Assembly (NCBI GenBank): GCA_964576925.1
Contig: CAZNWJ010000010.1
Span: 2,363-66,362, forward strand
DNA: 64,000 nt
Source of the DNA: an uncultured Ignavibacteria bacterium
GTDB lineage: Bacteria; Zixibacteria; MSB-5A5; CAIYYT01
Direction of reading: 5' to 3'
The notes under the pieces: model-generated
Seen by the model: the letters and a program-made list of their open reading frames with translations, nothing else
What the model was told of the DNA's origin: nothing
The model's database searches: none
Position numbers and translations under genes: made by a program
Shown here: positions 232 to 28,009 of the stretch, one piece after another
Layout: the number at the start of each line of letters is the position of its first letter
Position numbering within the stretch: the first letter of the stretch is position 1

Positions 232-3102
232 ATGGCAGGATTGCGATCAACAATGTACATCGGCTTAGGCGGTTTCGGGAGTTCTGTAGTGCGCGAGATT
301 AAGCGCCGAATCGCAGAAGTCAAACCGGATCAAGTTGACGGTTTTGGATTCTTGGCCCTCGATACTCAAGGATGGAGTAAGAGCGACATTCTCATAAAGA
401 ACGAATACATACCAATGGCTCTTGGCGTGAGTCCGCAGACAGTCTCGAGTAACGACCCCAAGTTTTTGGGCTGGTTCCCCAAGCTAATGGGCAACACCGG
501 CAACTACACGATTAGCGGCGGTGCAGACGCTAAGAGGCCAGTTGGACGACTTGCGTTTCGATATGGCAAGACTCTCGCAGAGTTCATTTCAAAGTTCAGT
601 CAAACTTCGCGCGGTCTGAAAGAAGAGCGAAGTGGATTCGAGTCAGGAATGCAGCCCAAGTTTTATGTTATCTCGACTCTTGCGGGCGGTACTGGTTCTG
701 GATGCCTGATTGATGTACTCTTTGTGGTCGGCAAATTGATCAAGCAGGAAATTGGGGAAGGTGCGTCTTACCAACTGATTGCCGTAATGCCGGAATTCTT
801 GCAAAGCAAAGTGAACATGGAGCGTCTTGGCATGTTTAGGGCCAACGCTTATGCGACACTGAAGGAGCTGCATCATGTCCTGACAACCAATGAACCTCCT
901 ACTGCGAGCTTTGATGATAACTTTCTGGCTAATATTAGTTTGAGCAAAGAGTACCTTCCGCAGGCGGTGCACATCGTTGGTGACAGAAATGAACACGGAA
1001 CTCTCATACTAAAACAGCCTGAAGAGATGATTGCGACAGTCTCAGCTTACTTAGAATCAGAGATTGTGACACCTGTCGATGTTGCAGGCGGGAAACCTCG
1101 TATTCAGGACATGGAAAATCAATACATCGATGAGGTAGGTCACAGTAATATGGCGCGCTGCATTTCGTCGATAGGTGTAACGACAGTCGGAATTCCCAAG
1201 GATCATATTGACCGGCTGTATGCGCTAATGCTTCTGGAGGCGTCCCTCGAAAAGGAAATCCAAGCGACCGTAAATGTGTATGAGCAGACGGCTGATTGGC
1301 TTACTTCAGAGAGGCTGTGTGAAACCGGCACGAACCAGCTTCAAGACTCTATTCGTGCGGCATTGGCACCAGAATTGTTCGACACCGCAATTGATCCGAG
1401 GGGGAGATTGCTCGACTCCGGATATAAGCGGGAAAAACTGGCCGGTGAGTGCCAGAAGTACTCCGAGGAGCTGGACAAGTCGATCGCGAAGGAGCGCAAG
1501 CCAGAGATTCTTAAACAGGGGAAATTGCGTAAGCAAGGAGCGATTTTGGCCCTAAAGGGGAAAGCTGACTCAATACTGAGAACCGGAGTGCATGGAGAGG
1601 TGCTGGCTTTTCTGAATCAGCTTGAGCACGCGCTAAAAAGCCACCAGGCTTCGATGAGCGAGGAGCATAAGCAGGCGCAGAACCGGCTTGCACTACTCGA
1701 AGGTGACGTGAAGAAAGCGATCGAAGGCGTTGGTGATTCGATCCAAGGATTCTGGGGGCGCACGGAAAGAATCGTTGATGCGATCAGCGATTTTGGACAC
1801 CGAAAAGAAGCCGAACTGAGCGCATCGATTGACTTGTGGGTCAGCGAGCAAGCGGCAGAAGTCTTCTCTGCAATTGTTGGAGAATGTGCGGTTTTGGCAA
1901 AAGACTATAAATCAAAAGTTGAAATGCTCAAGGGTCGACTGAAAGCGATTCAAGAAGAGATTCATGCCGAGAATCGTCAAATTGATGCGCTTGCTGACCT
2001 CAACAAGCGGGGAGAGGGGAATAGGTTCAGCTTGGTTGACAGCAGCCGTGCCAGGGAACTGTACAAAGAGAAAATCGCTCCGGAAATCGGCGCCAGCATA
2101 GGAAGAATACGTGGCCGCTGGATTGATAGTCCAAAGTTGAGCGACAGCAAAACCACTACAGAAGACTGGATACAGCTTCAAAGCGGCAAGATTGTCGCAG
2201 AGGAGATAAGTGCGAAGCTGGCTGATCAGAGTTTTATGACGGTATTGGAGAGATTTTATTCAAAGACCGACGACCGGAATTCGCTTTTCGACACTCTTAA
2301 CACAATTTCGTCGCCATTATTCCACCTCGACCGGAATAAAGAAGAAACTGCTTATGATGACCAAATACTATTTGGGATCCATAATGATCTCCGAGATGAG
2401 TTTTTTACGAAGTATGAACGTATGTTCGAAGTTAGGGGAAAAGGGCACCTGCATTTTGACTCAAAGCATGAGATAAAGATTTATCAGGTTGTATTTGGGT
2501 ACACACTGCATTCGCACAGTTCCATTGTGCTCTATGAACGAGAACTAAGGCAGCGCCTTCAAAAATACTTCCAGCAAAAGGCGTCCAAGAAAACACCCGG
2601 CACCTCCTTTCACAGCTGGATTGAGGCATTCGAATGGCCAGAAATACTGCCAAGCAAGTCCAGTGAAGAAGCTGCATCATGGTTCGTACTGGGAAGGGCG
2701 TTCAGCACATTGTTTCCCTCTGAAGGTGCAGCCTCCGCCGATGACAAGAAGAATACGGCTTACCTCTTCAAGAGAGGAGCCAATTTCTATATCCAATTAG
2801 ATGATGCGAACAAACCGCAGCTCATCGGCAACGGACTGCCGGCAGCATTTGCGGAATTCAGTGATCGATTGGATTGGCAGTCGGTGTTAAGGGAAAAGAT
2901 CACTCGTAAGCGGAATGAAATTGGCGAGAGAACCCTGGCCGACCGGCTGGTTAAGGAATTCGTTCCGTTGATTTCATCCGAGATCGAGACGGCTGAAAAC
3001 AACCCTGATGGCAATTCGGCCGAGCGTGCTCGAATCCTGCGAAAGATGCTGGTGGCATTGGAACAGTATCTAAAGTCCGAGCTTACGACAGCGACGTTTT
3101 AG
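232..3102 (+). CDS. Tubulin/FtsZ-like GTPase (Tubulin_2-type) with long helical/coiled-coil C-terminus
   Basis: N-terminal IGLGGFGSSV loop and STLAGGTGSG tubulin signature. Strong RBS GAGGAGG at 216-222 favours ATG 232 over TTG 226. Confidence 0.85.
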   Translation: MAGLRSTMYIGLGGFGSSVVREIKRRIAEVKPDQVDGFGFLALDTQGWSKSDILIKNEYIPMALGVSPQTVSSNDPKFLGWFPKLMGNTGNYTISGGADAKRPVGRLAFRYGKTLAEFISKFSQTSRGLKEERSGFESGMQPKFYVISTLAGGTGSGCLIDVLFVVGKLIKQEIGEGASYQLIAVMPEFLQSKVNMERLGMFRANAYATLKELHHVLTTNEPPTASFDDNFLANISLSKEYLPQAVHIVGDRNEHGTLILKQPEEMIATVSAYLESEIVTPVDVAGGKPRIQDMENQYIDEVGHSNMARCISSIGVTTVGIPKDHIDRLYALMLLEASLEKEIQATVNVYEQTADWLTSERLCETGTNQLQDSIRAALAPELFDTAIDPRGRLLDSGYKREKLAGECQKYSEELDKSIAKERKPEILKQGKLRKQGAILALKGKADSILRTGVHGEVLAFLNQLEHALKSHQASMSEEHKQAQNRLALLEGDVKKAIEGVGDSIQGFWGRTERIVDAISDFGHRKEAELSASIDLWVSEQAAEVFSAIVGECAVLAKDYKSKVEMLKGRLKAIQEEIHAENRQIDALADLNKRGEGNRFSLVDSSRARELYKEKIAPEIGASIGRIRGRWIDSPKLSDSKTTTEDWIQLQSGKIVAEEISAKLADQSFMTVLERFYSKTDDRNSLFDTLNTISSPLFHLDRNKEETAYDDQILFGIHNDLRDEFFTKYERMFEVRGKGHLHFDSKHEIKIYQVVFGYTLHSHSSIVLYERELRQRLQKYFQQKASKKTPGTSFHSWIEAFEWPEILPSKSSEEAASWFVLGRAFSTLFPSEGAASADDKKNTAYLFKRGANFYIQLDDANKPQLIGNGLPAAFAEFSDRLDWQSVLREKITRKRNEIGERTLADRLVKEFVPLISSEIETAENNPDGNSAERARILRKMLVALEQYLKSELTTATF

Positions 3103-3123
3103 CCGCGGAAGATAGGGTGTCTC

Positions 3124-5340
3124 TTGCAAGGTCTTCGACAAGACATAGAGCAGCATGTTACGAAGTGGCAGCGTGATGATCCTCTGAAAGCGGCTCGCGT
3201 GATCAATGTCCTCCTTTCAGAGGATCTTCGAGATGTTAAGGAATGTTCTGACCAGCTCTTTCCTCACCCTAGTCCTTCCCTAGAGGCAATTGCGCCTTGG
3301 GTCGTTCTCGGGAGCGATATTTCCGAGAATGAAGTTGCACTCCAAAGGGCCTGCAAGAAGTCATTCGATTCTAACCTTCTGCAGCACTTGATCCTTGAAG
3401 GATGTCAAGTTATTGGCGACTCTAGCCTAATTGTAGCGGTTGGAGACCTTTGCGATAAAGAAGCGATGGCTCGATGCCGTTCTGCGATTGAGGTTCTGAG
3501 GGGCTGCCTTTCCGGCCTCGTCGAACCTGGCACGCCAGTGATTGCCATAGGAGTCTTCACTTTGAGGAGATTTGTAGCCAGCTCTGACTCTCCAACGGGA
3601 CGTATTCGAGATGCAGAACCTGAATTCGACGTAGAATCGCTGGCGGAAGTCGATATGGATGCCACACTGAATCTGCTGAGGGACGGGGAGCTGTTCGATC
3701 GGGTGTTTCTTGTAGATGTTGCGACCCAGGAAGGTGTCTTGCTTACAGGTCCCGCCGATCAGCATCTTCTTCTGTCACAAATCATCAATGCGATCGTCGC
3801 AATGCAGGCACGCACTATTGACCCAGATGAGTTCATTAGATGGGCCAGGAATTCAGGTGTTGTTGATGGGTGCATTAGTAGTGCCGGCGTTTTTATGCTC
3901 GACATTCCGGTTGCTGATATCGTGGAAAAGGTTGCGGTCGCTAAGGGCTGCGATGTGCTGGAATCAGCAGTATTAAAATGTCCAAACCTGTCGCACAGCA
4001 CGTTTTATTTCAACGATTTCTTGGTCAGGAACCGCACAAGCTCGACAGACACGCTTCAGGCGAAAATTGCTGAATCGATTTCGACAAACTTTGTCGAACC
4101 ATTTGCAAAGTTGCCTAACTTCAACGAAATGACTTTTGCTTCGCAAGTCACTGAGATCATTCACAATCACAACAGCTCGATCGAATCGGCAGCCCAGCTT
4201 AAAGTGCTGTTGCTCCTTGCTGGCAGAGAAGAATTGGCAGTGTTGAAAAATAGCCTTTTCGATTATGCCGATTCGATCATTCGCGGGGAATTTGGCGGGC
4301 TAACATTGGCACGCGAATTCCTTAAACAACTTGAAGAGAACCTCAAGTTAGAACACGAAAAGAGCAAATCAGCAGAACTTACTGAACGCTCTGACTCGGC
4401 TATCAAAGAACTCTCTTGTCTTGTGACAGAAGAAGCATTCGCCGAGTCCTTGGCCATTCGGCTGGCAGTGTTGCTCATCACCATAATCGCAGCAGTTTCA
4501 GTGTTTAGCGCATCTCCCGCAAGTTTCGCTATCACCCTGGCGTCTGTCTTGCTGACTGGATCAGCTGTAGGTGGCTTCCTATGGCACTCTTCTAAGACTC
4601 GTCGGGAAAACAAGCTGAACGATACTATCTCTAAGTTGAGAAAAAACTGGTCGCTTCTGAAGAGAAATGCGGTAAGTGAAGTGACTTCATCTCTTCAGCT
4701 TAATCTGCTTGAAGCCGTTACTGCACTGCGGGTTAATTTGGAAGGAGCCAGTTCAAGAATTGAGTTTGTGATCGAACACTTTTCGAAGTCGGGCATGGAT
4801 CTTACCGCGGCTGACCATCCGACTCGAAGATGCTTGGTCGACCAAGCCGATCCTTTCAAAAGTTATATTGAAAGGGCTAATGTAGACATTGGACCTCTTG
4901 CAATGAGATTTCTTCGCGAGGACACGCCGTCGCAACTATGGAGACACTTTGTTGCGCAAAGTGCAACGCTTCCGTCCGGAAGGGAGAACTTGTTGTTTGA
5001 GCGTGCTGCACTGCGTGTGGTCCCGACCTGCCAGTGGATAGCGGAACTTGTGCTTTATGATGAAATGCCAAAGGATGCCGGCATGAGGGAAAGACTCTTC
5101 GAGCTGATCCTAAATGGCACAACCTTCTACCTCCGAATTGACCCGAATCTACAGCGGAGAAGTACATCATTTCGCGGTCACTTAGAATCAGCTACACACG
5201 CACTTGGTGATCAGCTTCTCAGCTCGTTAATCAAGCGCACAGGAGGAACGTTCGGGTCTAACCATCAGGGCGCGGTTTCCCGAGTTACGAGTATTGTCTT
5301 CCTTGACGGCGTCGAACTCGCGGCAGTGAAGTGGAGGTAG
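3124..5340 (+). CDS. Degenerate tubulin-like protein with a C-terminal-half transmembrane hairpin
   Basis: CISSAGVFMLDIPVADI aligns with CISSIGVTTVGIPKDHI of the upstream GTPase; FDRVFLVD...EG resembles PQAVHIVG...HG. No GGxG or GGGTGS motif. Two hydrophobic helices (LAVLLITIIAAVSVF / FAITLASVLLTGSAVGGFLW). Confidence 0.6.
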   Translation: MQGLRQDIEQHVTKWQRDDPLKAARVINVLLSEDLRDVKECSDQLFPHPSPSLEAIAPWVVLGSDISENEVALQRACKKSFDSNLLQHLILEGCQVIGDSSLIVAVGDLCDKEAMARCRSAIEVLRGCLSGLVEPGTPVIAIGVFTLRRFVASSDSPTGRIRDAEPEFDVESLAEVDMDATLNLLRDGELFDRVFLVDVATQEGVLLTGPADQHLLLSQIINAIVAMQARTIDPDEFIRWARNSGVVDGCISSAGVFMLDIPVADIVEKVAVAKGCDVLESAVLKCPNLSHSTFYFNDFLVRNRTSSTDTLQAKIAESISTNFVEPFAKLPNFNEMTFASQVTEIIHNHNSSIESAAQLKVLLLLAGREELAVLKNSLFDYADSIIRGEFGGLTLAREFLKQLEENLKLEHEKSKSAELTERSDSAIKELSCLVTEEAFAESLAIRLAVLLITIIAAVSVFSASPASFAITLASVLLTGSAVGGFLWHSSKTRRENKLNDTISKLRKNWSLLKRNAVSEVTSSLQLNLLEAVTALRVNLEGASSRIEFVIEHFSKSGMDLTAADHPTRRCLVDQADPFKSYIERANVDIGPLAMRFLREDTPSQLWRHFVAQSATLPSGRENLLFERAALRVVPTCQWIAELVLYDEMPKDAGMRERLFELILNGTTFYLRIDPNLQRRSTSFRGHLESATHALGDQLLSSLIKRTGGTFGSNHQGAVSRVTSIVFLDGVELAAVKWR

Positions 5341-5344
5341 CTTT

Positions 5345-6520
5345 GTGTTGTTCCTTAGCTTAGTAGTCTACATAGTACTTCTGGTCATTTATCTGCCTGT
5401 CGTCAGGCCAGTGCTGGCATGTACAGAGAATGTACCGGATGCCCTCGAAGACATGCTGCTTTTTGCCGCCGCATTCGCTTTGACGCGTTTTGCATTGTAT
5501 CTGGCCGAGATCTACCATGAAGGGCTCTTATCCAAGCTTCAGAAGATTGTATCTAAGGACGGAATACGTCGTCTTGCATTTGTGAATGCCGCAATAGTGA
5601 TGTTTGCAGTACTTGCTCAGCTTATAGCAAAAGGCGAGTGGATAGGAGGGGCACCAATGGACTTCATGCTCCCAGTCTTCGTTGTGTCAATCCTTAACGC
5701 ATTTGGAATCGAGTTGTTTCCAAAGGTGATGCTAAAGAATGGCAGCTCTTCGACGGCCATGCCCAAAATATTGCCGGATCCCAGTTCGTTCTCGGAGGCG
5801 CCAGACCTGGTTCAGACGCCCCCCGGAGATGGCGATACCAAGGTTGTGGTACCGCAGTCTGAAGAGCAAGATTCTGAGATTCAAGAGTTCCCAACTATAC
5901 CGCCTCGGCGCAATTTTGAGTGGACGATGAATGGCAAGAGATTCCAAGTCCAAATAGATGTTCGCGAAGCAGTCTATAGAGAGCTGGCGAGTCGACCGCG
6001 TAATCTTAACCACAATGAGTGGGGAAAACACTACGTTTGTGATGGAATCACAGCAGAAATTCGAGAAGTAGCCTCCGAGCTGGCAAAGAAAGCCGAAGGG
6101 CAGAATTGTCGAAACGAAGTTGATTTGGTGCTTTCGTTTGTTCAGCAAGTTGTGAAATACACGAGTGACGGAGCGCGCGAGTACCCTCGCTATCCACTCG
6201 AAACACTTCATGATTCACTTGGTGATTGTGAAGATTTCGTGATTTTGGCGGCCGCCATTCTGAAATGCCTGTACTACGATGTCGCTTTGCTTCTGCTTCC
6301 AGAGCACGTCGCGCTTGGTGTAGCTGCCGCTGGTAATCTGCCCGGTCACTCAATTTCTCATGATGGGGTCGAATATTACTACTGCGAGATGACAGCCAAT
6401 CATGAGTTCGGGTCTTTGCCCGAAGACTGTGATCTGTCCAAAGCAGTGGTGCTGCCGGTCCCTGAGCCGGAAAGAAAAATAGTCTTGGTGGGCGACGAGC
6501 CCCGGATGATGTCCGATTGA
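5345..6520 (+). CDS. Membrane protein (about 4 N-terminal TM helices) with a C-terminal transglutaminase-like/papain-fold domain
   Basis: YPLETLHDSLGDCEDF (Cys), PEHVALGV (His) and YYCEMT (acidic) motifs; hydrophobic N-terminus followed by a Pro/Glu-rich linker. Confidence 0.8.
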   Translation: MLFLSLVVYIVLLVIYLPVVRPVLACTENVPDALEDMLLFAAAFALTRFALYLAEIYHEGLLSKLQKIVSKDGIRRLAFVNAAIVMFAVLAQLIAKGEWIGGAPMDFMLPVFVVSILNAFGIELFPKVMLKNGSSSTAMPKILPDPSSFSEAPDLVQTPPGDGDTKVVVPQSEEQDSEIQEFPTIPPRRNFEWTMNGKRFQVQIDVREAVYRELASRPRNLNHNEWGKHYVCDGITAEIREVASELAKKAEGQNCRNEVDLVLSFVQQVVKYTSDGAREYPRYPLETLHDSLGDCEDFVILAAAILKCLYYDVALLLLPEHVALGVAAAGNLPGHSISHDGVEYYYCEMTANHEFGSLPEDCDLSKAVVLPVPEPERKIVLVGDEPRMMSD

Positions 6521-7236: not shown

Positions 7237-7440
7237 TTACAACCCGATCTTCGGAGTTCGGCTATAGCGTCCCTTCACCGATTTTGTGTTCAGCCACTTC
7301 TGAATCTCGTCGGGACGAAACCGCACGAAGTTTCCAATCTTCAAGTGAGGAATGTATTCAATATGAGTCCACTGGTAGATGGTTGACTTCTTCACACAGA
7401 GCATTTCGGCCAATTCTTCAGCTTTCAAGAGCCTGTCCAT
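7237..7440 (-). CDS. Excisionase/AlpA-like helix-turn-helix DNA-binding protein (HTH_17 type)
   Basis: MDRLLKAEELAEMLCVKKSTIYQWTHIEYIPHLKIGNFVRF is a typical HTH_17 pattern. GGAGG RBS precedes ATG 7440; gene lies next to the att-like junction. Confidence 0.8.
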   Translation of the reverse strand: MDRLLKAEELAEMLCVKKSTIYQWTHIEYIPHLKIGNFVRFRPDEIQKWLNTKSVKGRYSRTPKIGL

Positions 7441-7561
7441 GTCTTCAATACCTCCCGCACTCATCTGCTTATTATTGAGTTGATAGTTGTTCCTCGCCTC
7501 TCAGGGAAGTCCGGAGTGAATAACGTCATGACTGAAAGGGGACCCAGATTGCGCTTGACGA

Positions 7562-7695: not shown

Positions 7696-10600
7696 GTGAA
7701 CAACATTGCTTTTCCCCAGGCTCAGGCTGAGATGTCTGCACTTCTAAGCAGTGTCTCCAAGTACCTCTGCTCTTATCTTGGCAATCGACTTCCTTCAATC
7801 GCTGGTGACTGGTGGGAAAAGTGCGTGTTAGCGTGTCTAACCCCTGAACAAACAAGACGGGTCAAGAAGTACGGAACGAATTCTCTATCGGCACTGGATC
7901 TTGCCGCCCTGCTACGTATACTCGATCAGAACTGGCACAGAATTTCCACAAGCGAGAACTTGCCGCGAGAATCAAGGCACTTCTTGAAGGAGATGCAAAC
8001 AATCAGGAATCGTTGGGCACACGCAACGCTGGAAGGATTTTCGGTCGATGACCTGTACCGTGATCTCGATACTTTGCAACGATTTTCGACGATGATTGAG
8101 GCTGGGGAAGAGTTCGTCCAGATTGTGAAGGAGTTGAAGCGGTCGCTAGTCCATAGTGAAGAACAAAAATTGCCGGCGTCGGAGGTCGTCAGAGAGCAAG
8201 TCAACCAAGTGAAACGTTCCGAGTCCGACGAAATAAAACCGGGGCAATTAGTATGTCTAATCTCAAGACCCGATATTCATGGCGCCGTCATCGAGATGAT
8301 TCCAGGAAACCCCGAGAATCGATACAAGGTGTTTATTGAAGGAAAGGTTCAAGAATTCTATGCTTCACAGATTCAGTCGATTCAAACTCAAGAAGAAGAA
8401 TCGCTGGCCCTGACTGCCGATCATTTCCATGCATTTCTCACGTCACTGCAAATTCGTTATCCTGGGCTGGCAACGCTGTACTCATTGAATGCAGCTCGCA
8501 TCGATTATGTTCCTTACCAATTTCGTCCGGTGCTGAGGTTTATCCGTTCGGACCGACCTCGGCTTTTGATCGCCGATGGTGTAGGTGTTGGTAAGACTAT
8601 CGAGGCGGGATTGATTCTTCGCGAACTGCAGGCACGTCGGGATATTAGATCGATACTGATCATCTGTCCACGACCGTTGGTCACAGAACGAAAATGGCTG
8701 AACGAAATGAAGAGGTTCGAGGAACGATTCAGTCATTTGGACGGACCAACGCTGCGTTTGTGCATAAGTGAAATGGACTTGGATGGAAATTGGCCGGAAC
8801 AGTACCAGAAGATCATTGTTCCTTATTCACTATTTGATGAAACTCTGCTGCATGGCACGACTGCGGACGGCAAGCGAAAGCGCAAGCGAGGACTTCTTGA
8901 TTTGGATCCGCCGCCGCGATTCGATCTGGTAATTGTCGACGAAGCCCATCATATTCGAAACTCCAATACATATAGTCATCAAGCTGTCAGATTCTTCTGC
9001 GACCACGCTGAAGCGGTATTGTTCTTAACAGCGACTCCGATTCAGCTTGGGAGTCACGACCTGTTCGTGCTACTAAACACGCTTCGTCCCGACTTGATTA
9101 TCGATGAAGAGAGCTTTCGGCACATGTCTGAACCCAATGCGTTTATCAACCAGGCCGTCAGTGCTCTCCGCTCCCAAACAGATAGCAGTAATTTTCAATG
9201 TTTGGAGTCTCTTCAGCAAGCAGTAGACACCTCGTGGGGACGAGCGATTCTCAGGCAAAATCCGGAGTTCAATCGGGTCTGCACGGCCCTGCGCGAGAGT
9301 TTACTCTCCCCCGCTGAGCGAATCGAGCTGATCAGGGTTCTTGAAGATCTTCACACATTTTCGGGCATCATCAATAGAACGCGGCGACGAGACATCGGCG
9401 ACTTCACTATTCGTCAGCCAGAAACAGTGCGAATTGACTTCTCTCCGGACCAGCGCAAGCTTCACGACGAGTTGCTTGACGTCCAGGCGCAGGTTTTCGC
9501 CATGCTTCACGGCGACAAGAACGTGATGTTCATGCTGAGCACGATTCGTCGGCAGGCGGCGAGTTGCCTGTATGGCTTGGCACCGTTTCTGGAAGAGATC
9601 TTGAGTCGACACCTAGATGAACTCTCGTGGGATGAAGCCGACGATTCGCGTGGAGTTCCCAATCTCGAAGTCGTCACTCCGATCGAGTCAAGGATTCAAC
9701 AAGTTCTGGAAATGGCAAGGAATCTGGATCCCCGGGATCCAAAACTGGAGGCGTTGCGGAGAATCCTCCGAGAGAAGCAGCTTCTATCCAACAACAGAGT
9801 CATCGTCTTCAGCAGCTTTCGTCACACGCTTGGGTATCTTGAACGGCAGCTGTCGGCGGAGGGCCTACGAATTGCCCTGGTTCACGGTGACACTCCTGAC
9901 GAAGAGCGAGTTGAGCTTCGCAGCCGCTTTGAATTGCCTCGAGATTCAGAGCAGGCAATAGACGTCATGCTTTTTTCGGAGATCGGTTGTGAAGGTCTGG
10001 ATTATCAGTTTTGTGATTGCATCATAAACTATGACTTGCCGTGGAATCCTATGCGGATTGAGCAGCGCATAGGCCGTATCGATAGAAGGGGCCAAACGAG
10101 CGAGACCGTGGCCATCATCAATCTGATAACTCCGGGAACCATTGACGCGGACATCTACGATCGCTGCCTGCTACGTATCGGCGTGTTTAACGCCGCCTTG
10201 GGGGGCAGCGAAGAAATACTGGGGGAAATCCACAGTGAGATTCGCAATATCGCCGAAAACTTCATTCTGACGGAGGATCAAAGGAGAGAAAAACTGCAGC
10301 AGTTGGCGGATAACAAGATTCGCCTCTTGCAGGAGCAAGAAATGCTGGAGCAGCGACAACTTGAGCTGTTCGGTATTCGCTTGCCGGAGGAGCAGCTCAA
10401 GCAAGATATAGCGGATGCCACAAACTACTGGTTACTGCCAGAATCCCTGCTCAAGCTAGTCACTCACTACCTTCGATCGATTGCTGGCGCGGGTCAAGAA
10501 AGTATCCTTGGTGACAAACCCCTGAAGACCCTGCGCCTGTCTCAAGAAGCACGATCCCGACTACTGAGAGATTACCAGCAACTACCTCGGCAGAACACGC

Positions 10601-11286
10601 CGCCATATAGAGAGTGGGAGAATTGGCTCAAAGGAGGAGATCCGCACTTTTCGATCACCTTTGACCCAGATTGCGCGATGCTAAACCCCAAGACGGCTTT
10701 CCTGATGCCACTGCATCCGCTTGTAAAGCAAGCCGCCAATTCTCTTGATTCTGGTAGGCGAGTTTTCGCTTCACTGACGACAAAGAGCACAGAGGTTCCA
10801 GAAGGCAGGCACGAATTTGTAGTCTACCAGTGGCGGTTTCATGGGATCAAGGAGAATCAGATACTCCGCCCCGTGGCTACAAACGAAGCTGTAACTCAGC
10901 ACCTCGATGCTGTTCTTCAGGACTCATCTGACTGTAAGATCATAGAGCCCGGTGAACTTGGTCAGCAGACCTGGAATGATCTAGATCATAAGCATTATGA
11001 ACTTTGGGCCGAAGCCCGAGCGCAGCATCGTCGTCAGACACAGGAAATAGCTGCGTATCGTCGCGAGAGCCTGGCGGCCAGCCATCGCGCGCGTATTTTA
11101 CTGCTACAAGAGCAATTAGATCAGGCAAGCGATGACAGAATTCGGAAAATGCGTCAATCGCAGCTGGCCTCAGCGGAAGCCGATTATGCCAGACATCTTC
11201 AAGAGCTGGAAATTGCGGCCGAAAGGGCGGACATCACTGCTACTCCGGTGGCGTACGGCATGTTGGAGGTGGTGGCGAAGGCATGA
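7696..11286 (+). CDS. SNF2/RapA-like SF2 helicase with N-terminal Swt1-like HEPN domain
   Basis: LDLAALLRILDQNW...RNRWAH (HEPN RxxxxH); helicase motifs ADGVGVGKT, VDEAHH, LTATP, CEGLD and QRIGRIDR. Confidence 0.85.
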   Translation: MNNIAFPQAQAEMSALLSSVSKYLCSYLGNRLPSIAGDWWEKCVLACLTPEQTRRVKKYGTNSLSALDLAALLRILDQNWHRISTSENLPRESRHFLKEMQTIRNRWAHATLEGFSVDDLYRDLDTLQRFSTMIEAGEEFVQIVKELKRSLVHSEEQKLPASEVVREQVNQVKRSESDEIKPGQLVCLISRPDIHGAVIEMIPGNPENRYKVFIEGKVQEFYASQIQSIQTQEEESLALTADHFHAFLTSLQIRYPGLATLYSLNAARIDYVPYQFRPVLRFIRSDRPRLLIADGVGVGKTIEAGLILRELQARRDIRSILIICPRPLVTERKWLNEMKRFEERFSHLDGPTLRLCISEMDLDGNWPEQYQKIIVPYSLFDETLLHGTTADGKRKRKRGLLDLDPPPRFDLVIVDEAHHIRNSNTYSHQAVRFFCDHAEAVLFLTATPIQLGSHDLFVLLNTLRPDLIIDEESFRHMSEPNAFINQAVSALRSQTDSSNFQCLESLQQAVDTSWGRAILRQNPEFNRVCTALRESLLSPAERIELIRVLEDLHTFSGIINRTRRRDIGDFTIRQPETVRIDFSPDQRKLHDELLDVQAQVFAMLHGDKNVMFMLSTIRRQAASCLYGLAPFLEEILSRHLDELSWDEADDSRGVPNLEVVTPIESRIQQVLEMARNLDPRDPKLEALRRILREKQLLSNNRVIVFSSFRHTLGYLERQLSAEGLRIALVHGDTPDEERVELRSRFELPRDSEQAIDVMLFSEIGCEGLDYQFCDCIINYDLPWNPMRIEQRIGRIDRRGQTSETVAIINLITPGTIDADIYDRCLLRIGVFNAALGGSEEILGEIHSEIRNIAENFILTEDQRREKLQQLADNKIRLLQEQEMLEQRQLELFGIRLPEEQLKQDIADATNYWLLPESLLKLVTHYLRSIAGAGQESILGDKPLKTLRLSQEARSRLLRDYQQLPRQNTPPYREWENWLKGGDPHFSITFDPDCAMLNPKTAFLMPLHPLVKQAANSLDSGRRVFASLTTKSTEVPEGRHEFVVYQWRFHGIKENQILRPVATNEAVTQHLDAVLQDSSDCKIIEPGELGQQTWNDLDHKHYELWAEARAQHRRQTQEIAAYRRESLAASHRARILLLQEQLDQASDDRIRKMRQSQLASAEADYARHLQELEIAAERADITATPVAYGMLEVVAKA

Positions 11287-14200
11287 ATATGAAACTCAAT
11301 ATTAATCAGCTATCAGAGAGGCGAAAGAGCTGGGTTGAAGCGAATCGGCAGAATGGGTTCGAGGACGGAATTAAACGATTACTAACCGATCTCTATCCTG
11401 ATAACGCTCATTTTATATACGAACTCCTCCAGAATGCTGAAGATGCCGGTGCTACCGTTGTTCGATTCATCCTCAACGAAAATAATGTTGAGTTCGAGCA
11501 CAACGGAAGTCGTCTATTCTCGATAGAGGATGTTGACTCAATTACGAGTATAGGCGTCAGCAATAAAAGAGACGATCCCACCAGCATAGGGAAGTTTGGA
11601 GTTGGATTTAAGGCAGTATTTGCCTATACCCTAACTCCGCAAATAAAATCTGGCGACTTCCATTTCTGCATTCGCGACTTGGTTGTGCCAGTCACTGACG
11701 GTTTGATCCCATGCAATCGTGACAGAAATGATACGTTCATGACTTTTCCATTCGACAACCCGAAAATGCCGACTGAAAAGGCTCTAGCGAATATTGAAAA
11801 GCATCTTCGCCAATTGAACGAAAACACCCTGCTATTTCTCAGAAATATCAAACGCATTGAATACCTTTTGCCGGATTTAGGTCTGGGTTTTCTTGAACGA
11901 AGGGAAACGGAAGATAACCGTCTGGAGATTTCTGTCCAGCATCCGAATGAACTAGCGCCCTCCACTTTGCACTATCTCCGGTTTCAAAAACAAACTGAGA
12001 TTCGCGACGAGGACGGCAGTTCGAAATCATGTTCAATTGCCATCGCCTTCGCACTAGAGAAGGCGGAAGAATTAGGGTCTGAAAAGTCGCTCAAACGGTC
12101 CGAATTGCAGAATACAACGGAGTGGCGAATACGACCACTGAATCCGGGCCAAGTATTCATCTATTTTCCTACAGAGAAAGAAACTTCCAATCTCCGATTT
12201 CACATGCACGCTCCTTTCGCGTCCACCGTGGCACGCGATAGTGTTCGCGATTGTCCGGCAAATATTGAGTTGCGGGATCAATTGGTAGGGTTGGTTGCGG
12301 AGTCGATGCTTGCGATACGGGATCAAGGACTGTTGACAGTTCGATTCTTGGCAACGCTTCCAAATGACAAGGATAGTCTCCCAGTCTTCTACAAACCATT
12401 TATCGATGGGTTAGTAGAGACCTTCAAGGACGAGGCCTTAACCCCGATGAGAAATGGGGAGCATGCGCCTGCATCCGACATCTTCAGAGGCTCAGCTCAA
12501 TTGGCAAACCTAGTAACTGATGAAGACTTTGTAGCCCTCCTGGGCGAATCTTACACTCCACCGATGTGGGTGGCAAACCCACCTCAACGAAACCAAAGGG
12601 AAGATACCTTTTTGAATATGCTGGAGATCAGTGAATGGACTGCGGAAGACTTGGTTCGCGCACTCTGCGACAAGCCCAACACACTGGAGTTGTTCTTGGC
12701 CTCTAAAACCGACTTATGGCATCAGCAGCTCTATGTATTGTTAGCGGATTACCTGTCAGATGCTCCATCTGTTCCGTATCTGGAAGCGCAGAATCGCAAG
12801 CGATCTTTGGCGACTCTCCGCATAGTTCGGAGGTCCGATGGCAAGTACGGATCTGGAAGCGAGTGTTACTTCCCCAGTGAGGGAGTCGATCAGGACGATT
12901 TGATGCCGCGCGTCGCCAAAGGTGTTTACACTTCCGGAAGGAGTGAAGACCAGCAAGCTAAGGCAAAAGACTTTCTTCTGAAAATCGGTGTTCGTGAAGC
13001 AGGCGAGGCTGAACAAGTCGAGGCGATCCTCAAGAGCCGCTACTCAGATGATGCCGACGAAACAGGTAGTTTTGCACCCAAAATAGAGGATATCAAGCGA
13101 TTTGTTACCTTAGTCGAAAGAGAACCATTCCAGGCGAATCTGTTCAGCGAATATTCCATGTTTCAATTGAAAGACGGTGACTGGGGCAGACCACAAAGCG
13201 TATACCTGGACACGCCGTTTGGTGATACTGGTCTGAGCGCACTATATGATCTATTGGGCGAAAAGGCAGACCGCTGGGCACTTTCCCCAGACTACAAGAA
13301 ATGCGGCGTAGCAGTTGACAGAATTGTAGACTTTGCTAGAAGAGCCGGTGCTCAAAACAAATTGAACGTGATTTCGCTAGAGCAGTATTATTCTCAAGAT
13401 TATACAATCAATCACTTGGATCTTGCGCTGCAGGCTAAAGACTCTTCCATCTCCAAATTGATCTGGAAGACACTCGTTGAATTGGAGAGTGGATATGTTA
13501 TTGAGCAGTATGCTCACCGGTTGGTGCGGAAGCGAGTGAACTTCTATTACGATGGGGACTCAGAGTTAATCTCCAGGCTAAAGCATAGTGAATGGGTGCC
13601 TCAAGCCATGGCGAAGGAGCTGTCATTCGTTAGGCCGACTGATGCTGATCCGAAGTTACTTCCTGGCGGTTATTCATTTGACAAAGGCTGGAAATGGGTA
13701 GCTGCAGTCGATTTTGGCTGTTCTGTCCGCCAACGAGAGGAGGCAGCACGCCTTCAATCACAAAGCAAGAACGAGGCCATCCAACAGCTAAACGAAGTCG
13801 CACACAAACTGGGATTCGACTCGGTGAGTGAGGCCAGGGAGATGGCGGAGCTGAAGCGGTTGGACCCGAGCGGCTACAAGCGATGGCTTGAGCGCAACAA
13901 GCAGAAGCCAACATTTCCAACGCGAAATCCAGCGGATCCTGAGCGTCGCAGTGGAAAACTCACTGAACAACTCGATGAGGCGCCGACCAGAGAATTCCAG
14001 AAGCGCCAGAGAAGCGTCCGCACGACAAGGGGAGCGATCAACCCAGTACCATCGCTAAGGAGCCTATACACCAATCAAGACGACCAGATGATTTGTCAGT
14101 TGTGCAAGGAAGAAATGCCTTTTCGAAAGAGGTCCGGAGAGCACTATTTCGAAGCGGTCGAAGTCCTGTCCCAAGAGCTGTTGCCGAAAGAACACGAGGC

Positions 14201-14411
14201 CCAATATCTAGCGTTGTGTCCTTTGTGCGCAGCTATGTACAAGGAGTTTGTGCGGCACGACGAAGTTGTGATGTCGGCGCTCAAGCAGGCAATTCTGGAA
14301 TCCGAGGATCCGGAGATCAAACTGCAGCTTGGTGAGGTAGAGACTACTCTACAATTCGTTGAAACTCACTTCTTTGACTTGAAGACAATTCTCGGGGCCG
14401 ATAGCCCGTAG
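11283..14411 (+). CDS. Sacsin/MORC-type GHKL ATPase with C-terminal HNH-like Zn-finger domain
   Basis: HFIYELLQNAEDA and SIGKFGVGFKAVF GHKL motifs; C-terminal CQLC...YFEAVE...LALCPLC. ATGA overlap with the upstream gene. Confidence 0.8.
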   Translation: MNMKLNINQLSERRKSWVEANRQNGFEDGIKRLLTDLYPDNAHFIYELLQNAEDAGATVVRFILNENNVEFEHNGSRLFSIEDVDSITSIGVSNKRDDPTSIGKFGVGFKAVFAYTLTPQIKSGDFHFCIRDLVVPVTDGLIPCNRDRNDTFMTFPFDNPKMPTEKALANIEKHLRQLNENTLLFLRNIKRIEYLLPDLGLGFLERRETEDNRLEISVQHPNELAPSTLHYLRFQKQTEIRDEDGSSKSCSIAIAFALEKAEELGSEKSLKRSELQNTTEWRIRPLNPGQVFIYFPTEKETSNLRFHMHAPFASTVARDSVRDCPANIELRDQLVGLVAESMLAIRDQGLLTVRFLATLPNDKDSLPVFYKPFIDGLVETFKDEALTPMRNGEHAPASDIFRGSAQLANLVTDEDFVALLGESYTPPMWVANPPQRNQREDTFLNMLEISEWTAEDLVRALCDKPNTLELFLASKTDLWHQQLYVLLADYLSDAPSVPYLEAQNRKRSLATLRIVRRSDGKYGSGSECYFPSEGVDQDDLMPRVAKGVYTSGRSEDQQAKAKDFLLKIGVREAGEAEQVEAILKSRYSDDADETGSFAPKIEDIKRFVTLVEREPFQANLFSEYSMFQLKDGDWGRPQSVYLDTPFGDTGLSALYDLLGEKADRWALSPDYKKCGVAVDRIVDFARRAGAQNKLNVISLEQYYSQDYTINHLDLALQAKDSSISKLIWKTLVELESGYVIEQYAHRLVRKRVNFYYDGDSELISRLKHSEWVPQAMAKELSFVRPTDADPKLLPGGYSFDKGWKWVAAVDFGCSVRQREEAARLQSQSKNEAIQQLNEVAHKLGFDSVSEAREMAELKRLDPSGYKRWLERNKQKPTFPTRNPADPERRSGKLTEQLDEAPTREFQKRQRSVRTTRGAINPVPSLRSLYTNQDDQMICQLCKEEMPFRKRSGEHYFEAVEVLSQELLPKEHEAQYLALCPLCAAMYKEFVRHDEVVMSALKQAILESEDPEIKLQLGEVETTLQFVETHFFDLKTILGADSP

Positions 14412-14422
14412 GATGGAATTAA

Positions 14423-17400
14423 ATGGTTGCACCTTTCAAACACATCTCAATCAGAGTGCCGTGGCACGACACGGGCTGGGATGGACGTGTCTGTTTGCAC
14501 CCGAGCTTGAACGGATCCTGTTTGAAGCTAAAGCGTATAGGTCAGGAGCGTAACGACGAAGAAGAAGAGAGGGTAGCCGGAAGAAGTCTAAACGAGCTCG
14601 CTCCTGAAAAGTGGCCATGCTGCGTGGCTGAAAGAATGGCATTTATGGCTCCTTTCGACTATCATCGAGTCACCGTTCATCCTTACACGCGCACATCCCA
14701 AAAGAGTCATGGTCACTTTGCACCAACAACGCTTCGGTATCCAGCGTATTCCGCGCCTGCCGTCCCCTTTGCATGGCTACTCAAGGAGAACCTATCTACG
14801 CTTGGTGAGGAATTTGGGATCAATGTTCGGGCCGAGCGTGAACCCGACCTTGGTTTCAAGACTCAATGGATTCAACACCGTGACAACCAGAGTGCGCTGT
14901 TGGACTATTTCAGAAGCCAGATTCGACCACAACACTCCCTTTGCTTTTTCTATGCTAAGAGGGCGCCTTTTATGGAAGACCCCGGAATGAGTCGCATACT
15001 CATCGGCGTTGGTCGAGTGCTGAGTGTATCGCCATGCGTGGAATACGAATACAGCACAAAAGATCTTCATGGGCGACTGCGATCCGTCCTCTGGGAGTTG
15101 ATGGTCCAGCACAGTATTCGGCCTGATTTCCAGGATGGATTTATCTTGCCGTATCACGCGGCTATTCAATTAGCGGAAGATAACTCTGAGTATGATCCTT
15201 CAAAGCTTGCCGCGTTAACTCCTGATGATCGACTTCTGGAGTTTTCACATGCATCGCAGCACGTTACTCACGATGGCGCAATCGCGTGTCTTTTGGCCAT
15301 GGCCGAGTCGCTTCGAGAAGCTCAAACAACATTGCCGGGACCATGGGCAAGCTGCCTCACTTGGATTGATCAGCGCCTAGACGATTTGTGGATTGCTCGC
15401 GGGCCATTTCCGGGCCTCGGTTCCGCACTTTGTGCTTTCGGCGTTGAGTTGGGTACGTTCGTTGCGCTTGCATTGATGAAGAGGTTAGCGGAGAACTCCG
15501 ATCCATGGATTTTGGTGGATCAGCTAATGCGTGAGCCTGGAAAGTATCTCCCAAATCACCTTGCGAAGACAATCGACTTGACAAAACAGGCACACTGGAG
15601 CCAGCTGCCGAAAGAGCGTCGAGATCTCTTGAAACTCATTAGCCGATTTGAGGTAACGAAAGATCAGGCAAGACTTATCTACGCTAAGGAAGATCGTGGC
15701 GAACGTGGCCTCAACTGTTCCGACAGCAATATTCTTGCGAATCCTTATCTAGTCTACCAGATGACTCGCTTGAACTCTGACTCCATAAGTTTGTGGACTG
15801 TTGATCGTGGTGTCTTTCCTGACGAAGTAGTTAGAGCGCAACACCCGCTACCAACTCCAACGGCATTGAACTCTGGAACTGATGCCAGACGCGTCGGAGC
15901 ACTTGTGGTGAAGATTCTCGAAGACGAAGCGGCCATTGGCAATACTCTAATGCCGCAGGATCGACTAGTCACGGCGGTCAGAAATCTGAATATCAAGCCA
16001 GAGTGTTATATTGACGGAGATTTGCTAAATGTTGCCAAGAAGGAATTTGAAGGAACCATCATAGACACGAAAATGGCTGATGGGAGTAATGCACTTCAAC
16101 TCGATCGCTTGTCGGAAGTGGCCGAGATCATTAGGTCGTTTTGCAACAAGAGGATTGAGGGTAAGCGCCTAGCTGTTGAGGCAGACTGGCGCGGACTTCT
16201 CAATTGTCACCTTGACCGGAAAGGCGTAGGCATCCTGGACGAACTTGAAGAAAATGCTCGAGTGGAGAAGACTGCGGCCCTGAAAGAGCTTGCAGAATCC
16301 CGCATTAGTGTTTTGATCGGCCCGGCCGGAACGGGCAAGACGACATTGCTTTCAATCTTGTGCTCGCACCCCCAAATCTCCGAGGGTGATATATTGCTTC
16401 TTGCACCAACGGGTAAGGCCAGGGTGCGAATCGAGCAGTCTTCCGATCATCTCAATCTTAAGGGATATACCGTTGCCCAGTTCCTAAGTCCACACCGTTA
16501 TGATCCTGTAACAGGTCGCTACCTCTTGTCGGATAAAGTTGCGGAAGCAGGGGCCAGAACTGTCATCGTCGATGAAGCATCAATGCTGACCGAAGAAATG
16601 TTGGCGGCGCTGATTCAAGCCTTGACAGGAGTGCATCGACTGATCTTGATCGGGGATCCGCGGCAGTTGCCGCCGATCGGCTCTGGACGGCCATTTGTGG
16701 ACATTATCAACCGTCTAGCACCGGAAAATATAGCCGACCGATTTCCTCGAGTGGGGAGAGGCTATGCTGAGTTGACGATAAGACGTCGCCAAGCTGGAGT
16801 AGAGCGAGACGATATTCAACTGGCAGAGTGGTTCAGCGGCTCACCTATGCCACCAGGGGAGGACGATGTATTTGAAAATGTCACTCGATTAAATGGCGGC
16901 GGCCACGTTGGATATGTGCGATGGGAGACAGCTGAGGAGCTAAAGGAGAAGCTCTTAAGTACGATAATCAACACGCTCGGAATGAATGGGCTCGAAGATA
17001 TCCAAAGGTTCGATGAGTCATTGGGCGGAAAGGACTGGAATGGGTTGCGCTTCTTCAATTGCGGATCTGCAATCATAGCGGAGAATTGGCAAGTACTGTC
17101 ACCCGTCCGATCCGGACCACACGGGGTGCCGGATATCAACCGACTATTGCATAAGAAATTTAGACAACACTTCATCTCAGCTTCCATCCAAGAGAGAAAT
17201 CGCAGATACCCAAAGCCGATGGGGCACGAACAAATCGTTTATGGGGACAAAGTGATCAATCTCGTCAATACGGATTGTTCATTGCCCTGGAACAGACATC
17301 GCAGCGTGTACCCGCCAAAGCCTAAACCATACGTGGCCAACGGGGAAATCGGAGTCGTCATCGGGTACTTTTGGACGAATGAACATCGCAATCGCGGTCT

Positions 17401-18221: not shown

Positions 18222-18599
18222 ATGTCAGAAGAACAATCGATAGCGGCAACTACAGAGAGTCTGAGAAAGTCGCTAATCAAAATTGCAGTTGAATCTTGGA
18301 GGGTCAGCCGAGTTATTCAGAGGATTTTGATGAAGCTCGATGCCGGCGAGCAAAACCGATTCCGGAGTCAGATGTCTTGGTTCTTGAAGAAAGTTGAGGA
18401 ATCTCTTAAGGAAGCAGATATGCGAATCGTCAACGTTGAGGGGCAACCGTTTGATACTGGAATGGCAGCGACACCGCTCAACATAGAAGAGTTCGGCGAG
18501 ACGGATAGGTTAATAGTTGATCAGATGCTTGAGCCGATCATCATGGCGAATGAAGGTCTGATCAGACCCGGCACTGTCATACTCAGAAGGGTTGAATAA
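18222..18599 (+). CDS. GrpE-like small protein (putative nucleotide exchange factor)
   Basis: Helical N-half followed by LKEADMRIVNVEGQPFD...PIIM...GTV, resembling the GrpE beta-domain; TAATG overlap with the Hsp70 gene. Confidence 0.6.
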   Translation: MSEEQSIAATTESLRKSLIKIAVESWRVSRVIQRILMKLDAGEQNRFRSQMSWFLKKVEESLKEADMRIVNVEGQPFDTGMAATPLNIEEFGETDRLIVDQMLEPIIMANEGLIRPGTVILRRVE

Positions 18600-21094: not shown

Positions 21095-21097
21095 ACG

Positions 21098-22564: not shown

Positions 22565-22576
22565 GGTAGCGATTTG

Positions 22577-24901: not shown

Positions 24902-24982
24902 GCAGCGAAATGAGAAGTCCCGACGCCGGGAGAACAAAGAAGGCGCAGGAAATCTCAACAGGATAATAAGTCGGTAAATAGC

Positions 24983-27987: not shown

Positions 27988-28009
27988 CAGCGGGCTTTAG
28001 CAGCCCCTG
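27988..28009 (+). terminator. Hairpin following the tmRNA/tRNA 3' fragment
   Basis: CAGCGGGCT-TTAGC-AGCCCCTG stem with one bulge; no clear U-tract. Confidence 0.35.

Follow-up and report, generated by a model that had tools for sequence, protein, structure and literature searches.

A predicted membrane-anchored pseudo-GTPase paralogue accompanies an FtsZ-like 1 protein in a conserved four-gene cassette

A 64,000-nucleotide (nt) stretch of DNA from an uncultured Ignavibacteria bacterium (placed in the Zixibacteria by GTDB; assembly GCA_964576925.1, contig CAZNWJ010000010.1, positions 2,363 to 66,362 of the forward strand), here called the window, encodes near its left edge two adjacent large proteins, gene 1 and gene 2, and the interval that they occupy (232-5340, all on the + strand) is the subject of this analysis. 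Gene 1 (232-3102, +; 956 amino acids) belongs to the FtsZ-like 1 (FtsZl1) or Tubulin_2 family, and gene 2 (3124-5340, +; 738 amino acids) is very probably its duplicate, on the strength of both paralogy and architecture, and appears to have lost the GTP-binding loops and gained a transmembrane (TM) hairpin. The two genes lie between a gene for a von Willebrand factor A (vWA) receptor and a gene for a further membrane protein, gene 3. The best overall explanation of the locus, which we hold to be probable with some reserve, is that genes 1 and 2 encode the central pair of a self-contained, envelope-spanning cassette of four genes, acting as a heteromeric GTP switch in biological conflict.

Gene 1 matched the Pfam family Tubulin_2 (PF13809) over residues 11-339 with an E value of 2.7e-38 and a score of 132.6 bits (cutoff, 27), and 19 full-length orthologues of 32 to 41% identity were found, giving a family alignment of 20 sequences. 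A preliminary description of the DNA had credited gene 1 with intact tubulin/FtsZ nucleotide-binding loops, and the alignment bore this out. In the T1 loop (YIGLGGFGS, residues 9-17; 256-282, +), glycines G11, G13, and G16 of the IGLGGFG core were invariant in all 20 sequences, as were T149, A151, G152, G153, T154, G155, and G157 of the T4 signature loop (TLAGGTGSG, residues 149-157; 676-702, +), which follows the pattern A-G-G-T-G-x-G from A151 onward. Moreover, an AlphaFold2 model built on the orthologue alignment (pLDDT, 85) had as its top Foldseek matches in the PDB CetZ1/2, Staphylococcus aureus FtsZ, and TubZ, with E values from 3e-4, a probability of 1.0, about 340 aligned columns, and TM-scores of 0.44 to 0.49 normalized to the target. 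Past the GTPase domain, the model has a helical-hairpin stalk (residues ~400-588), then an alpha/beta domain, and finally an extension of helices at the C terminus. Residues D293, E295, and N296, which follow the presumed H7 helix, are also invariant and are candidates for the catalytic residues of a T7 loop. Based on the Tubulin_2 match, the invariant T1 and T4 loops, the FtsZ/CetZ-like model, and the stalk architecture, we conclude that gene 1 is a member of the FtsZl1 family with intact nucleotide-binding loops.

Gene 2 as a single sequence matched no Pfam family above threshold, and a word-indexed homology search returned only its own database entry of 561 amino acids. An exhaustive HMMER search of 1.84 billion representative proteins recovered 64 relatives (representative clusters), nearly all of them 690 to 773 amino acids long and 19 to 27% identical, and the family was represented by an alignment of 55 sequences. 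Compared directly by BLASTP, residues 310-489 of gene 1 and 250-433 of gene 2 were 27% identical over 192 residues (E = 8e-7). The aligned segment opens at a motif common to both proteins, CISSIGVTTVGIP in gene 1 (residues 310-322) and CISSAGVFMLDIP in gene 2 (residues 250-262; 3871-3909, +), of which the gene 2 residue P262 is nearly invariant. This motif had already been singled out as homologous in the preliminary description, and it was recovered both by BLASTP and by the profile-profile program hhalign. When the 55-sequence gene 2 family was aligned with the 20-sequence gene 1 family by hhalign, the match (probability, 95%; E = 3.2e-8) was collinear over roughly 540 residues, running from 192 to 736 in gene 2 and from 244 to 763 in gene 1, and it paired FDRVFLVD of gene 1 with QAVHIVGD of gene 2, as had been proposed for the nearly identical stretch PQAVHIVG.

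The relationship of gene 2 to tubulins was also seen in its N-terminal domain. Against an alignment of 122 N-domains, drawn from diverse Tubulin_2 proteins of the loci described below, the N-domain of gene 2 aligned over residues 85-285 with a probability of 96% and an E value of 2.2e-9. The alignment sets LIVAVGDLCD of gene 2 (residues 102-111; 3427-3456, +) on the S4 strand and T4 loop of the Tubulin_2 consensus (IvsslaGGTGSG), in agreement with the earlier matching of IVAVGDL to YVISTLA of gene 1, and extends from S4/T4 through S7. In addition, the hidden Markov model of the gene 2 N-domain matched bona fide Tubulin_2 proteins in three unrelated loci (L011, L038, and L054). An AlphaFold2 model of gene 2 (pLDDT, 88.3; pTM, 0.79) presents its secondary-structure elements in an order parallel to that of gene 1, and the N-domain of the model was matched by Foldseek to FtsZ (4kwe_B; probability, 0.99; 261 columns) and to CetZ (3zid_A; probability, 0.89; 275 columns). 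Gene 2 is laid out as a degenerate Tubulin_2-like N-domain (residues ~1-290), a helical stalk that carries the TM hairpin, and a C-terminal alpha/beta domain homologous to residues ~590-763 of gene 1, and it lacks the last ~190 residues of gene 1. The long coiled-coil tails attributed earlier to both proteins are borne out as long helices and are better described as helical-hairpin stalks followed by a shared globular alpha/beta domain at the C terminus. The proposed tubulin-fold similarity of gene 2 holds at two levels, homology to the Tubulin_2 profile and a fold match to FtsZ and CetZ.

Some observations weigh against the assignment of gene 2 to the tubulin superfamily. The N-terminal regions of the gene 2 and gene 1 profiles, when compared alone, were not significantly similar (E = 0.064), and the first ~85 residues of gene 2, comprising S1 and the T1 region, are linked to tubulins by the fold model alone. 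Furthermore, the Foldseek match to FtsZ is weak by E value (0.039), and vWA-fold proteins are found among the weak matches to the Rossmann-like N-domain. With the missing Pfam match and the E values of the stalk (1e-3) and C-terminal domain (3e-4) taken singly, the nonsignificant N-terminal comparison could be read to mean that the similarity is due to chance or coiled-coil composition and that gene 2 is either a gene in decay or a membrane protein of other descent. We find this reading hardly credible, as the N-domain comparison against Tubulin_2 holds no coiled coil, the separate segments are collinear along the full length, reversed-sequence controls gave only E values of 0.05 to 0.5 over few columns, the fold model agrees, and intact open reading frames (ORFs) of 711 to 773 codons are kept in 9 distinct cassettes, in addition to the 64 representative clusters. 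When the PDB was searched by sequence with the two family profiles and the N-domain of gene 1, no meaningful match was returned. A scan of viral contigs with gene 2 found no relatives and a fold search of BFVD returned nothing at E values of ≤1e-3, so neither search points to a phage origin for gene 2.

The loops that bind nucleotide in gene 1 have no counterpart in gene 2. In the T1 region, strand S1 of gene 2 is followed by SEDL (SxxL in the family consensus) with no glycine-rich loop, and the T4 position reads GDLCD (DLxxx in the family) in place of GGTGSG, again with no glycine-rich loop in the family consensus. Residue D108 is nearly invariant, being kept in at least 90% of the family. 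The absence of nucleotide-binding loops that had been reported for the window copy is a property of the family consensus, and because both the T1 and T4 loops are missing from it, gene 2 is predicted to be a pseudo-GTPase relative rather than a functional member of the FtsZ/tubulin family.

Gene 2 also differs from gene 1 at the tip of the stalk. A TM helical hairpin, noted earlier in the window copy, spans residues ~440-487 (4441-4584, +), and a Kyte-Doolittle scan found at least one strongly hydrophobic segment of 19 residues in this region in 54 of the 55 family members. In the AlphaFold2 model, helices at residues 440-460 and 465-559 place the two-helix hairpin exactly at the stalk tip. 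No such hydrophobic segment was present in 19 of 20 gene 1 orthologues, and the one that has it carries it at residues 278-296, not near the stalk tip. At its own tip, gene 1 carries an aromatic-basic motif, QGFWGRTER (residues 505-513; 1744-1770, +), with the consensus G[FW][WF]GRKRR and a nearly invariant R510 among the 20 orthologues, and this motif aligns in the family hhalign comparison with the end of the second TM helix of gene 2 (GGFLWHSSKTRR). The gene 1 motif may be a peripheral membrane-contact site, and the alignment suggests that both stalk tips face the membrane, that of gene 2 embedded and that of gene 1 peripheral.

The genes are tightly spaced. Gene 1 starts at an ATG located 9 nt downstream of GGAGG, gene 2 starts at a TTG at position 3124 after a gap of 21 nt, and gene 3 (5345-6520, +; 391 amino acids) starts 4 nt past the stop codon of gene 2, with its ribosome-binding site GGAGG inside the end of gene 2. 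Upstream, an ORF cut by the window edge (2-217, +) supplies the last 71 codons and the stop codon of a gene for a vWA receptor, and encodes its cytoplasmic C-terminal tail. Promoter-like and terminator-like sites within the gene block were in no excess over shuffled sequence. The vWA gene and genes 1 to 3 look like a single operon. The copy of gene 2 in the public protein database has 561 amino acids and begins at residue 178, leaving out window positions 3124-3654, and the entry lacks most of the degenerate tubulin-like domain. Because orthologues align from residue 2 to 4 of the 738-codon ORF, we conclude that the TTG start is correct and that the database entry begins 177 codons late. For annotation, the consequence is that orthologues of gene 2 are invisible to Pfam and that the window copy is misstarted in the protein database.

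Loci around relatives of gene 1 were fetched from assemblies, GTDB genomes, and JGI metagenomes with the gene 1 alignment as the query. The order and strand of the vWA gene, gene 1, gene 2, and gene 3 were the same in every close locus with enough flanking sequence, and 11 distinct cassettes were found besides that of the window (L001, L003, L006, L007, L008, L086, L087, L088, L090, L091, and L094), originating from metagenome-assembled genomes (MAGs) of Deltaproteobacteria, Zixibacteria, Acidobacteria, and Myxococcales and from several metagenomes. The encoded proteins ranged from 709 to 1,046 amino acids for the vWA protein, 961 to 1,007 for gene 1, 711 to 773 for gene 2, and 343 to 371 for gene 3. 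That genes 1 and 2 belong together is confirmed by their joint presence in every related locus with enough flank, and the earlier reading of the two as an active and a degenerate, membrane-anchored paralogue holds; the unit, however, also includes the vWA gene and gene 3. We conclude that the functional unit is a cassette of four genes and not a pair.

The components of the cassette have diverged at different rates. Median pairwise identity was 41% for gene 3, 35% for gene 1, 31% for the vWA protein, and 23% for gene 2, and gene 1 was more conserved than gene 2 in all 36 locus pairs, making gene 2 the fastest-evolving component. Two more distant loci show what look like evolutionary intermediates of the active/degenerate pairing. 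In a MAG of the Anaerolineae (L011, 7647-15693), an ORF of 750 codons is followed by two tandem Tubulin_2 genes, the first with an intact GGTGSG and the second, while still recognizable, with a T1-like GLGATG kept and T4 degraded to AGLGDVVGS. In the other (L009), a Tubulin_2 gene of 919 codons is followed by a gene for a 547-amino-acid protein, the N-domain of which matches the gene 2 family with a probability of 96%. Based on these two loci, duplication of FtsZl1 with the downstream copy losing its nucleotide site seems to have been recurrent, and the gene 2 family of the window seems to be an extreme and stable outcome of that process.

The first gene of the cassette is only partly contained in the window. 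The ORF at the left edge is 35% identical (E = 1e-10) to residues 680-739 of the 742-amino-acid vWA protein of the deltaproteobacterial cassette L001, and because the match is to the C terminus of that protein, we conclude that the window cuts the first cassette gene. Of nine vWA orthologues, all carried the DxSxS motif of the metal ion-dependent adhesion site (MIDAS) and one strong TM helix 120 to 150 residues before the C terminus, followed by a small cytoplasmic tail, and seven carried an N-terminal hydrophobic signal or anchor. The orthologues also show weak similarity to filamin/Ig-like domains, which, like the vWA domain, are predicted to be extracytoplasmic. The tail, or C-terminal ~110 residues, is conserved between the window and L001 (7728-9956) at 35% identity and has no Pfam match. 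This tail is the part of the receptor that most obviously could contact the tubulin-like pair. Upstream of the vWA gene and on the same strand, a gene for an M48-family peptidase is found in L087 (6492-7733, 54 nt away) and L093 (4951-6273, ~1.3 kb away), fused in L093 to TerB, and may be an optional fifth component of the cassette.

Gene 3 encodes four N-terminal TM segments followed by a C-terminal domain resembling transglutaminase-like cysteine peptidases. Its Pfam matches were just below threshold for DUF553 (19.9 bits; cutoff, 20.5) and below it for Transglut_core (16.6 bits; cutoff, 23), and the orthologue in L001, to which it is 33% identical (E = 7e-69), matched DUF553 above threshold with 21.6 bits. 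A putative catalytic triad of C295 (in GDCED), H321 (in GH), and E348 (in YYYCE) falls in columns that are invariant in 8 orthologues, and the positive-inside rule would place the catalytic domain in the cytoplasm. In L001 (16220-16768), and likewise in L002 and L005, gene 3 is followed after 5 nt by a gene for a 182-amino-acid membrane protein of the Colicin_V/CvpA family, which occurs in the Deltaproteobacteria cassette only.

Operons of vWA and FtsZl1 genes, and the Tubulin_2 family, were described by Makarova and Koonin in 2010 (PMC2875224). Like the proteins of those operons, gene 1 combines an FtsZ-like domain bearing GGTGSG with a helical or coiled-coil extension and a helical C-terminal domain, and lies directly downstream of a membrane vWA protein with an intact MIDAS in an operon that encodes further membrane proteins; the adjacency of an FtsZl1 gene and such a vWA gene was found both in the window fragment and in all related loci with flank. 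The cassette differs from the operons of 2010 in that it lacks an OmpA-like protein, a protein kinase, and a P-loop GTPase, and in its fixed order of four genes, its pseudo-GTPase paralogue, and its TM transglutaminase-like enzyme. The accessory families B1 to B9 of that study were described as "membrane-associated" or "large" proteins, with no mention of a degenerate FtsZl1 paralogue (PMC2875224). In the same work, FtsZl1 was aligned to FtsZ by sequence up to helix H5 only and the T7 loop was not located (PMC2875224), whereas the gene 1 model aligns over ~340 columns with whole FtsZ and CetZ chains.

A second set of related systems is the GAP1-N2/DO-GTPase predicted conflict systems of Kaur, Burroughs, Iyer, and Aravind (2020; PMC7159879), which have tubulin, vWA, and HSP70 components and, in their Firmicutes versions, two tubulin genes. 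Both those systems and the cassette link tubulin-superfamily proteins with coiled-coil tails to extracellular-vWA proteins, with a predicted action at the membrane in conflict. The conserved cassette, however, contains neither a DO-GTPase nor a GAP1 gene, no FNIII-repeat protein was recognized in it, and its second tubulin is a Pfam-invisible, predicted pseudo-GTPase with a TM hairpin. Moreover, the genes flanking the cassette varied by locus and none was a P-loop GTPase in the loci with flank, the window itself ending within the vWA gene so that its upstream side is not visible. Because the defining DO-GTPase and GAP1 genes are absent, we conclude that the cassette is not a member of the DO-GTPase/GAP1-N2 systems. 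In a 2023 survey of the FtsZ/tubulin family, Tubulin_2 was set aside as divergent and used only to root the tree (PMC9871819), and full-text searches of open-access papers and preprints returned neither experimental studies of FtsZl1 nor any account of a pseudo-GTPase partner. The literature thus already contains the vWA-FtsZl1 operons and the occurrence of two tubulin genes together in predicted conflict systems. What is new here, and in our view moderately so, is the four-gene architecture and, as the main addition, the cryptic membrane-anchored pseudo-GTPase partner.

The pairing also invites comparison with tubulins proper. Like alpha/beta-tubulin and BtubA/B, genes 1 and 2 encode tubulin-superfamily paralogues from adjacent genes, with a plausible heteromer and unequal nucleotide chemistry. 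Alpha- and beta-tubulin both bind GTP and keep T1 and T4, whereas gene 2 has lost both, and no T7 loop was identified here. The long stalks, the TM hairpin, and the C-terminal domains have no counterpart in tubulins, and the heteromer is in this case a proposed one.

The surroundings of the cassette are those of an accessory region. GC content was 0.48 to 0.51 over window positions 1-28000 and 0.54 to 0.60 over positions 28000-64000, and it is at this step, near position 28000, that the low-GC accessory region ends on the right. Genes for a catalase-peroxidase, a Ser/Thr kinase-TPR protein, and a WD40 protein are located in the higher-GC part. The cassette is separated from the next system by a gene for a 75-amino-acid HTH_17 protein, excisionase or AlpA-like (7237-7464, −). 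A search for tRNA genes over the full window was negative, and the ORFs that were scanned included no evident integrase. The next three genes (7696-18160, +) overlap or abut and likely constitute a separate defense system: the first encodes a 1,196-amino-acid HEPN_Swt1 and SNF2 helicase protein that matches the DrmD model of PADLOC (E = 1e-112), the second a 1,042-amino-acid TmtA-like/sacsin-domain protein, and the third a 1,245-amino-acid RecD-like helicase that matches the candidate system PDC-S68 from end to end with 1,595 bits. Farther downstream (18599-27317, +), a run of genes for an Hsp70-like protein (831 amino acids), an AAA ATPase resembling IetA/TRIP13 (488), a TPR protein (775), and two familyless ORFs (552 and 228) resembles chaperone-type conflict systems. 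The Hsp70, AAA, and TPR genes (18.6-24.9 kb) were considered as part of the cassette, by analogy with the tubulin/HSP70 systems that Kaur et al. described, and were rejected because they lie 12 kb away, are separated from it by the three-gene system, and are absent from every orthologous locus.

In other genomes, the cassette adjoins type III-B Cmr genes, ParE, and a transposase (L001), Cdc6-like and Cas4-like genes (L003), two NACHT-TPR genes (L007), HerA-like, transglutaminase, and STAND-like genes (L008), or two IS66 transposases (L086). Across these loci, the cassette appears to travel as a unit, and conflict genes are often found nearby. The suggestion that the pair is the cargo of a genomic island gains support from the low GC content, the defense-type genes downstream, the patchy distribution over phyla, and the insertion sequences that flank some of the loci.

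The preliminary description, correct in all its sequence details, had put forward a heteromer, GTP switching, filament formation, and a role in conflict, and it is these properties that we infer rather than observe. The mechanism that we consider the most likely, and to which we give an even chance, is a membrane-tethered heteromeric GTP switch. The pseudo-GTPase gene 2 would use contacts between paralogous domains to anchor the soluble gene 1 at the cytoplasmic side of the membrane, giving a heteromer with one GTP site per pair and a division of labor loosely like that of alpha/beta-tubulin or of paired bacterial dynamins. The cytoplasmic tail of the vWA receptor could then couple an event at the surface to GTP-dependent assembly or conformational change of the heteromer, the output of which might be local remodeling or permeabilization of the membrane through the hairpins, with gene 3 providing a processing or effector activity. 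The cassette would be horizontally mobile and would most likely serve biological conflict, either against phage or against attack on the envelope. A role in defense is plausible and is held tentatively, at rather less than an even chance.

Several points count against a GTP switch that acts in conflict. No T7-type catalytic loop was located in gene 1 or gene 2 by hhalign against Escherichia coli FtsZ, the sequence of which was checked against PDB chains, and in the comparison with the gene 1 family the T1 loop alone was aligned (E = 0.024). The complex of gene 1 with gene 2 is a predicted one, and vWA domains located outside the cytoplasm are no less typical of surface and adhesion systems than of immunity. 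None of the four proteins had a meaningful match in PADLOC-DB v2, where genes 1 and 3 had no match and gene 2 had only weak matches, at E values of ≥0.0019, to the TM parts of effector models of the CBASS (cyclic oligonucleotide-based antiphage signaling system) type. Finally, the neighbors of the cassette in L090 are an ABC transporter and housekeeping transporter genes.

The PADLOC result and the housekeeping neighbors in L090 are among the observations that would be expected if the cassette were not an immune system at all and instead served membrane remodeling or envelope homeostasis, as Makarova and Koonin proposed in 2010 (PMC2875224). In that case, the vWA receptor would monitor the wall or surface of the cell, and the inner membrane would be shaped or repaired by the tubulin pair. 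All four proteins are linked to the membrane or act on it, the vWA and Ig-like domains are extracytoplasmic by prediction, and the gene 2 model bears a weak Foldseek likeness to Mx, BDLP, OPA1, and the paired bacterial dynamins. The rarity and patchy spread of the cassette across unrelated phyla speak otherwise, as do the CRISPR, STAND, toxin, DrmD-like, and insertion sequence genes that adjoin it in most loci, its position in the low-GC part of the window, and the very fast divergence of its components. The patchy spread, the defense neighbors, the low GC content, and the fast divergence are traits typical of accessory conflict cargo and not of a core envelope function, and we regard the envelope function as unlikely, if a serious alternative.

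The likeness to dynamins deserves separate mention. Paired bacterial dynamins (Campylobacter DLP1/DLP2, BDLP, and DynA) resemble the pair in that a long stalk joins a GTPase head to a tip that inserts into the membrane, and in being tandem paralogues that act at the membrane, and weak Foldseek matches of gene 2 were obtained to 5owv, 2j69, and MxA/MxB (probabilities, 0.35 to 0.47). The heads of the cassette proteins, however, have the tubulin/FtsZ fold and not the P-loop G domain of the TRAFAC class, such that the likeness is architectural and convergent. Gene 2 as a dynamin was rejected for its wrong GTPase fold, and dynamins were kept as an architectural analogy.

A different output would follow if gene 2 were itself the effector, its hydrophobic-tipped hairpin acting as a ClyA-family pore protomer or a holin and clustering by gene 1, driven by GTP, assembling the hairpins into oligomers that make a lethal lesion in the inner membrane, with abortive infection as the result. 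The top PDB matches of gene 2 by Foldseek were the pore and pre-pore protomers AhlB, SmhB, MakA, YaxAB, and XaxB, with E values down to 3e-5 and a probability of 1.0. For gene 1, in which the hairpin is missing, the ClyA-family matches were far weaker. A subthreshold match to Holin-X over gene 2 residues 417-513, together with the CBASS-type TM matches given above, points in the same direction. The TM-scores of the pore matches were only 0.14 to 0.34, however, with a root mean square deviation above 30 Å, and long helices with a hydrophobic turn may be enough to explain them. Moreover, no sequence relationship was found (no PDB sequence matches), two hydrophobic helices of ~20 residues are more likely to be inserted constitutively than conditionally, and the cassette already contains a separate candidate effector in the transglutaminase-like gene 3. 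We consider a pore-forming gene 2 doubtful. The tripartite alpha-pore-forming toxins of the ClyA family (AhlB, SmhB, MakA, and YaxB/XaxB) do share with gene 2 a long antiparallel helical hairpin and a hydrophobic two-helix head, which crosses the membrane in the pore form, but they are secreted and act on foreign membranes, whereas gene 2 is predicted to be a protein of the cytoplasmic membrane, its hairpin flanked by tubulin-like and alpha/beta domains that are both predicted to be cytoplasmic. Given the low TM-scores and the large deviations, we conclude that the ClyA likeness of gene 2 is architectural only. Gene 2 as a true ClyA-type toxin was rejected, the TM-scores being low, the matches local, and a signal peptide lacking.

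Elements of the pore-forming effector and of the tethered GTP switch can be combined in a bolder proposal, which we think improbable. The cassette would then be a tubulin-fold immune or abortive-infection machine of a kind not recognized before, in which an obligate heterodimer of active and pseudo-GTPase responds to the sensing of surface events by the vWA/MIDAS receptor with a GTP-driven lethal or remodeling membrane lesion made by the hairpins, and gene 3 locks or processes the assembly. If this were true, the heterodimer would be an independent reinvention of the division of labor between alpha- and beta-tubulin, equipped with a dynamin-like stalk and a ClyA-like hairpin.

Within the tubulin superfamily, no branch is more divergent than the FtsZl1/Tubulin_2 proteins, which were described 15 years ago. 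The constant presence, in one of their subfamilies, of a predicted pseudo-GTPase twin with a hairpin gives a concrete and testable model of how they may contact the membrane, namely, as an anchored heteromer with one active site, and the compactness of the cassette (four genes in ~9 kb) makes it suited to heterologous tests. The pair also adds a prokaryotic example of pseudo-enzyme partners arising in a cytoskeletal GTPase superfamily. If the defense-island context reflects function, the cassette would represent a tubulin-fold switch in prokaryotic immunity that is tied to an extracellular receptor.

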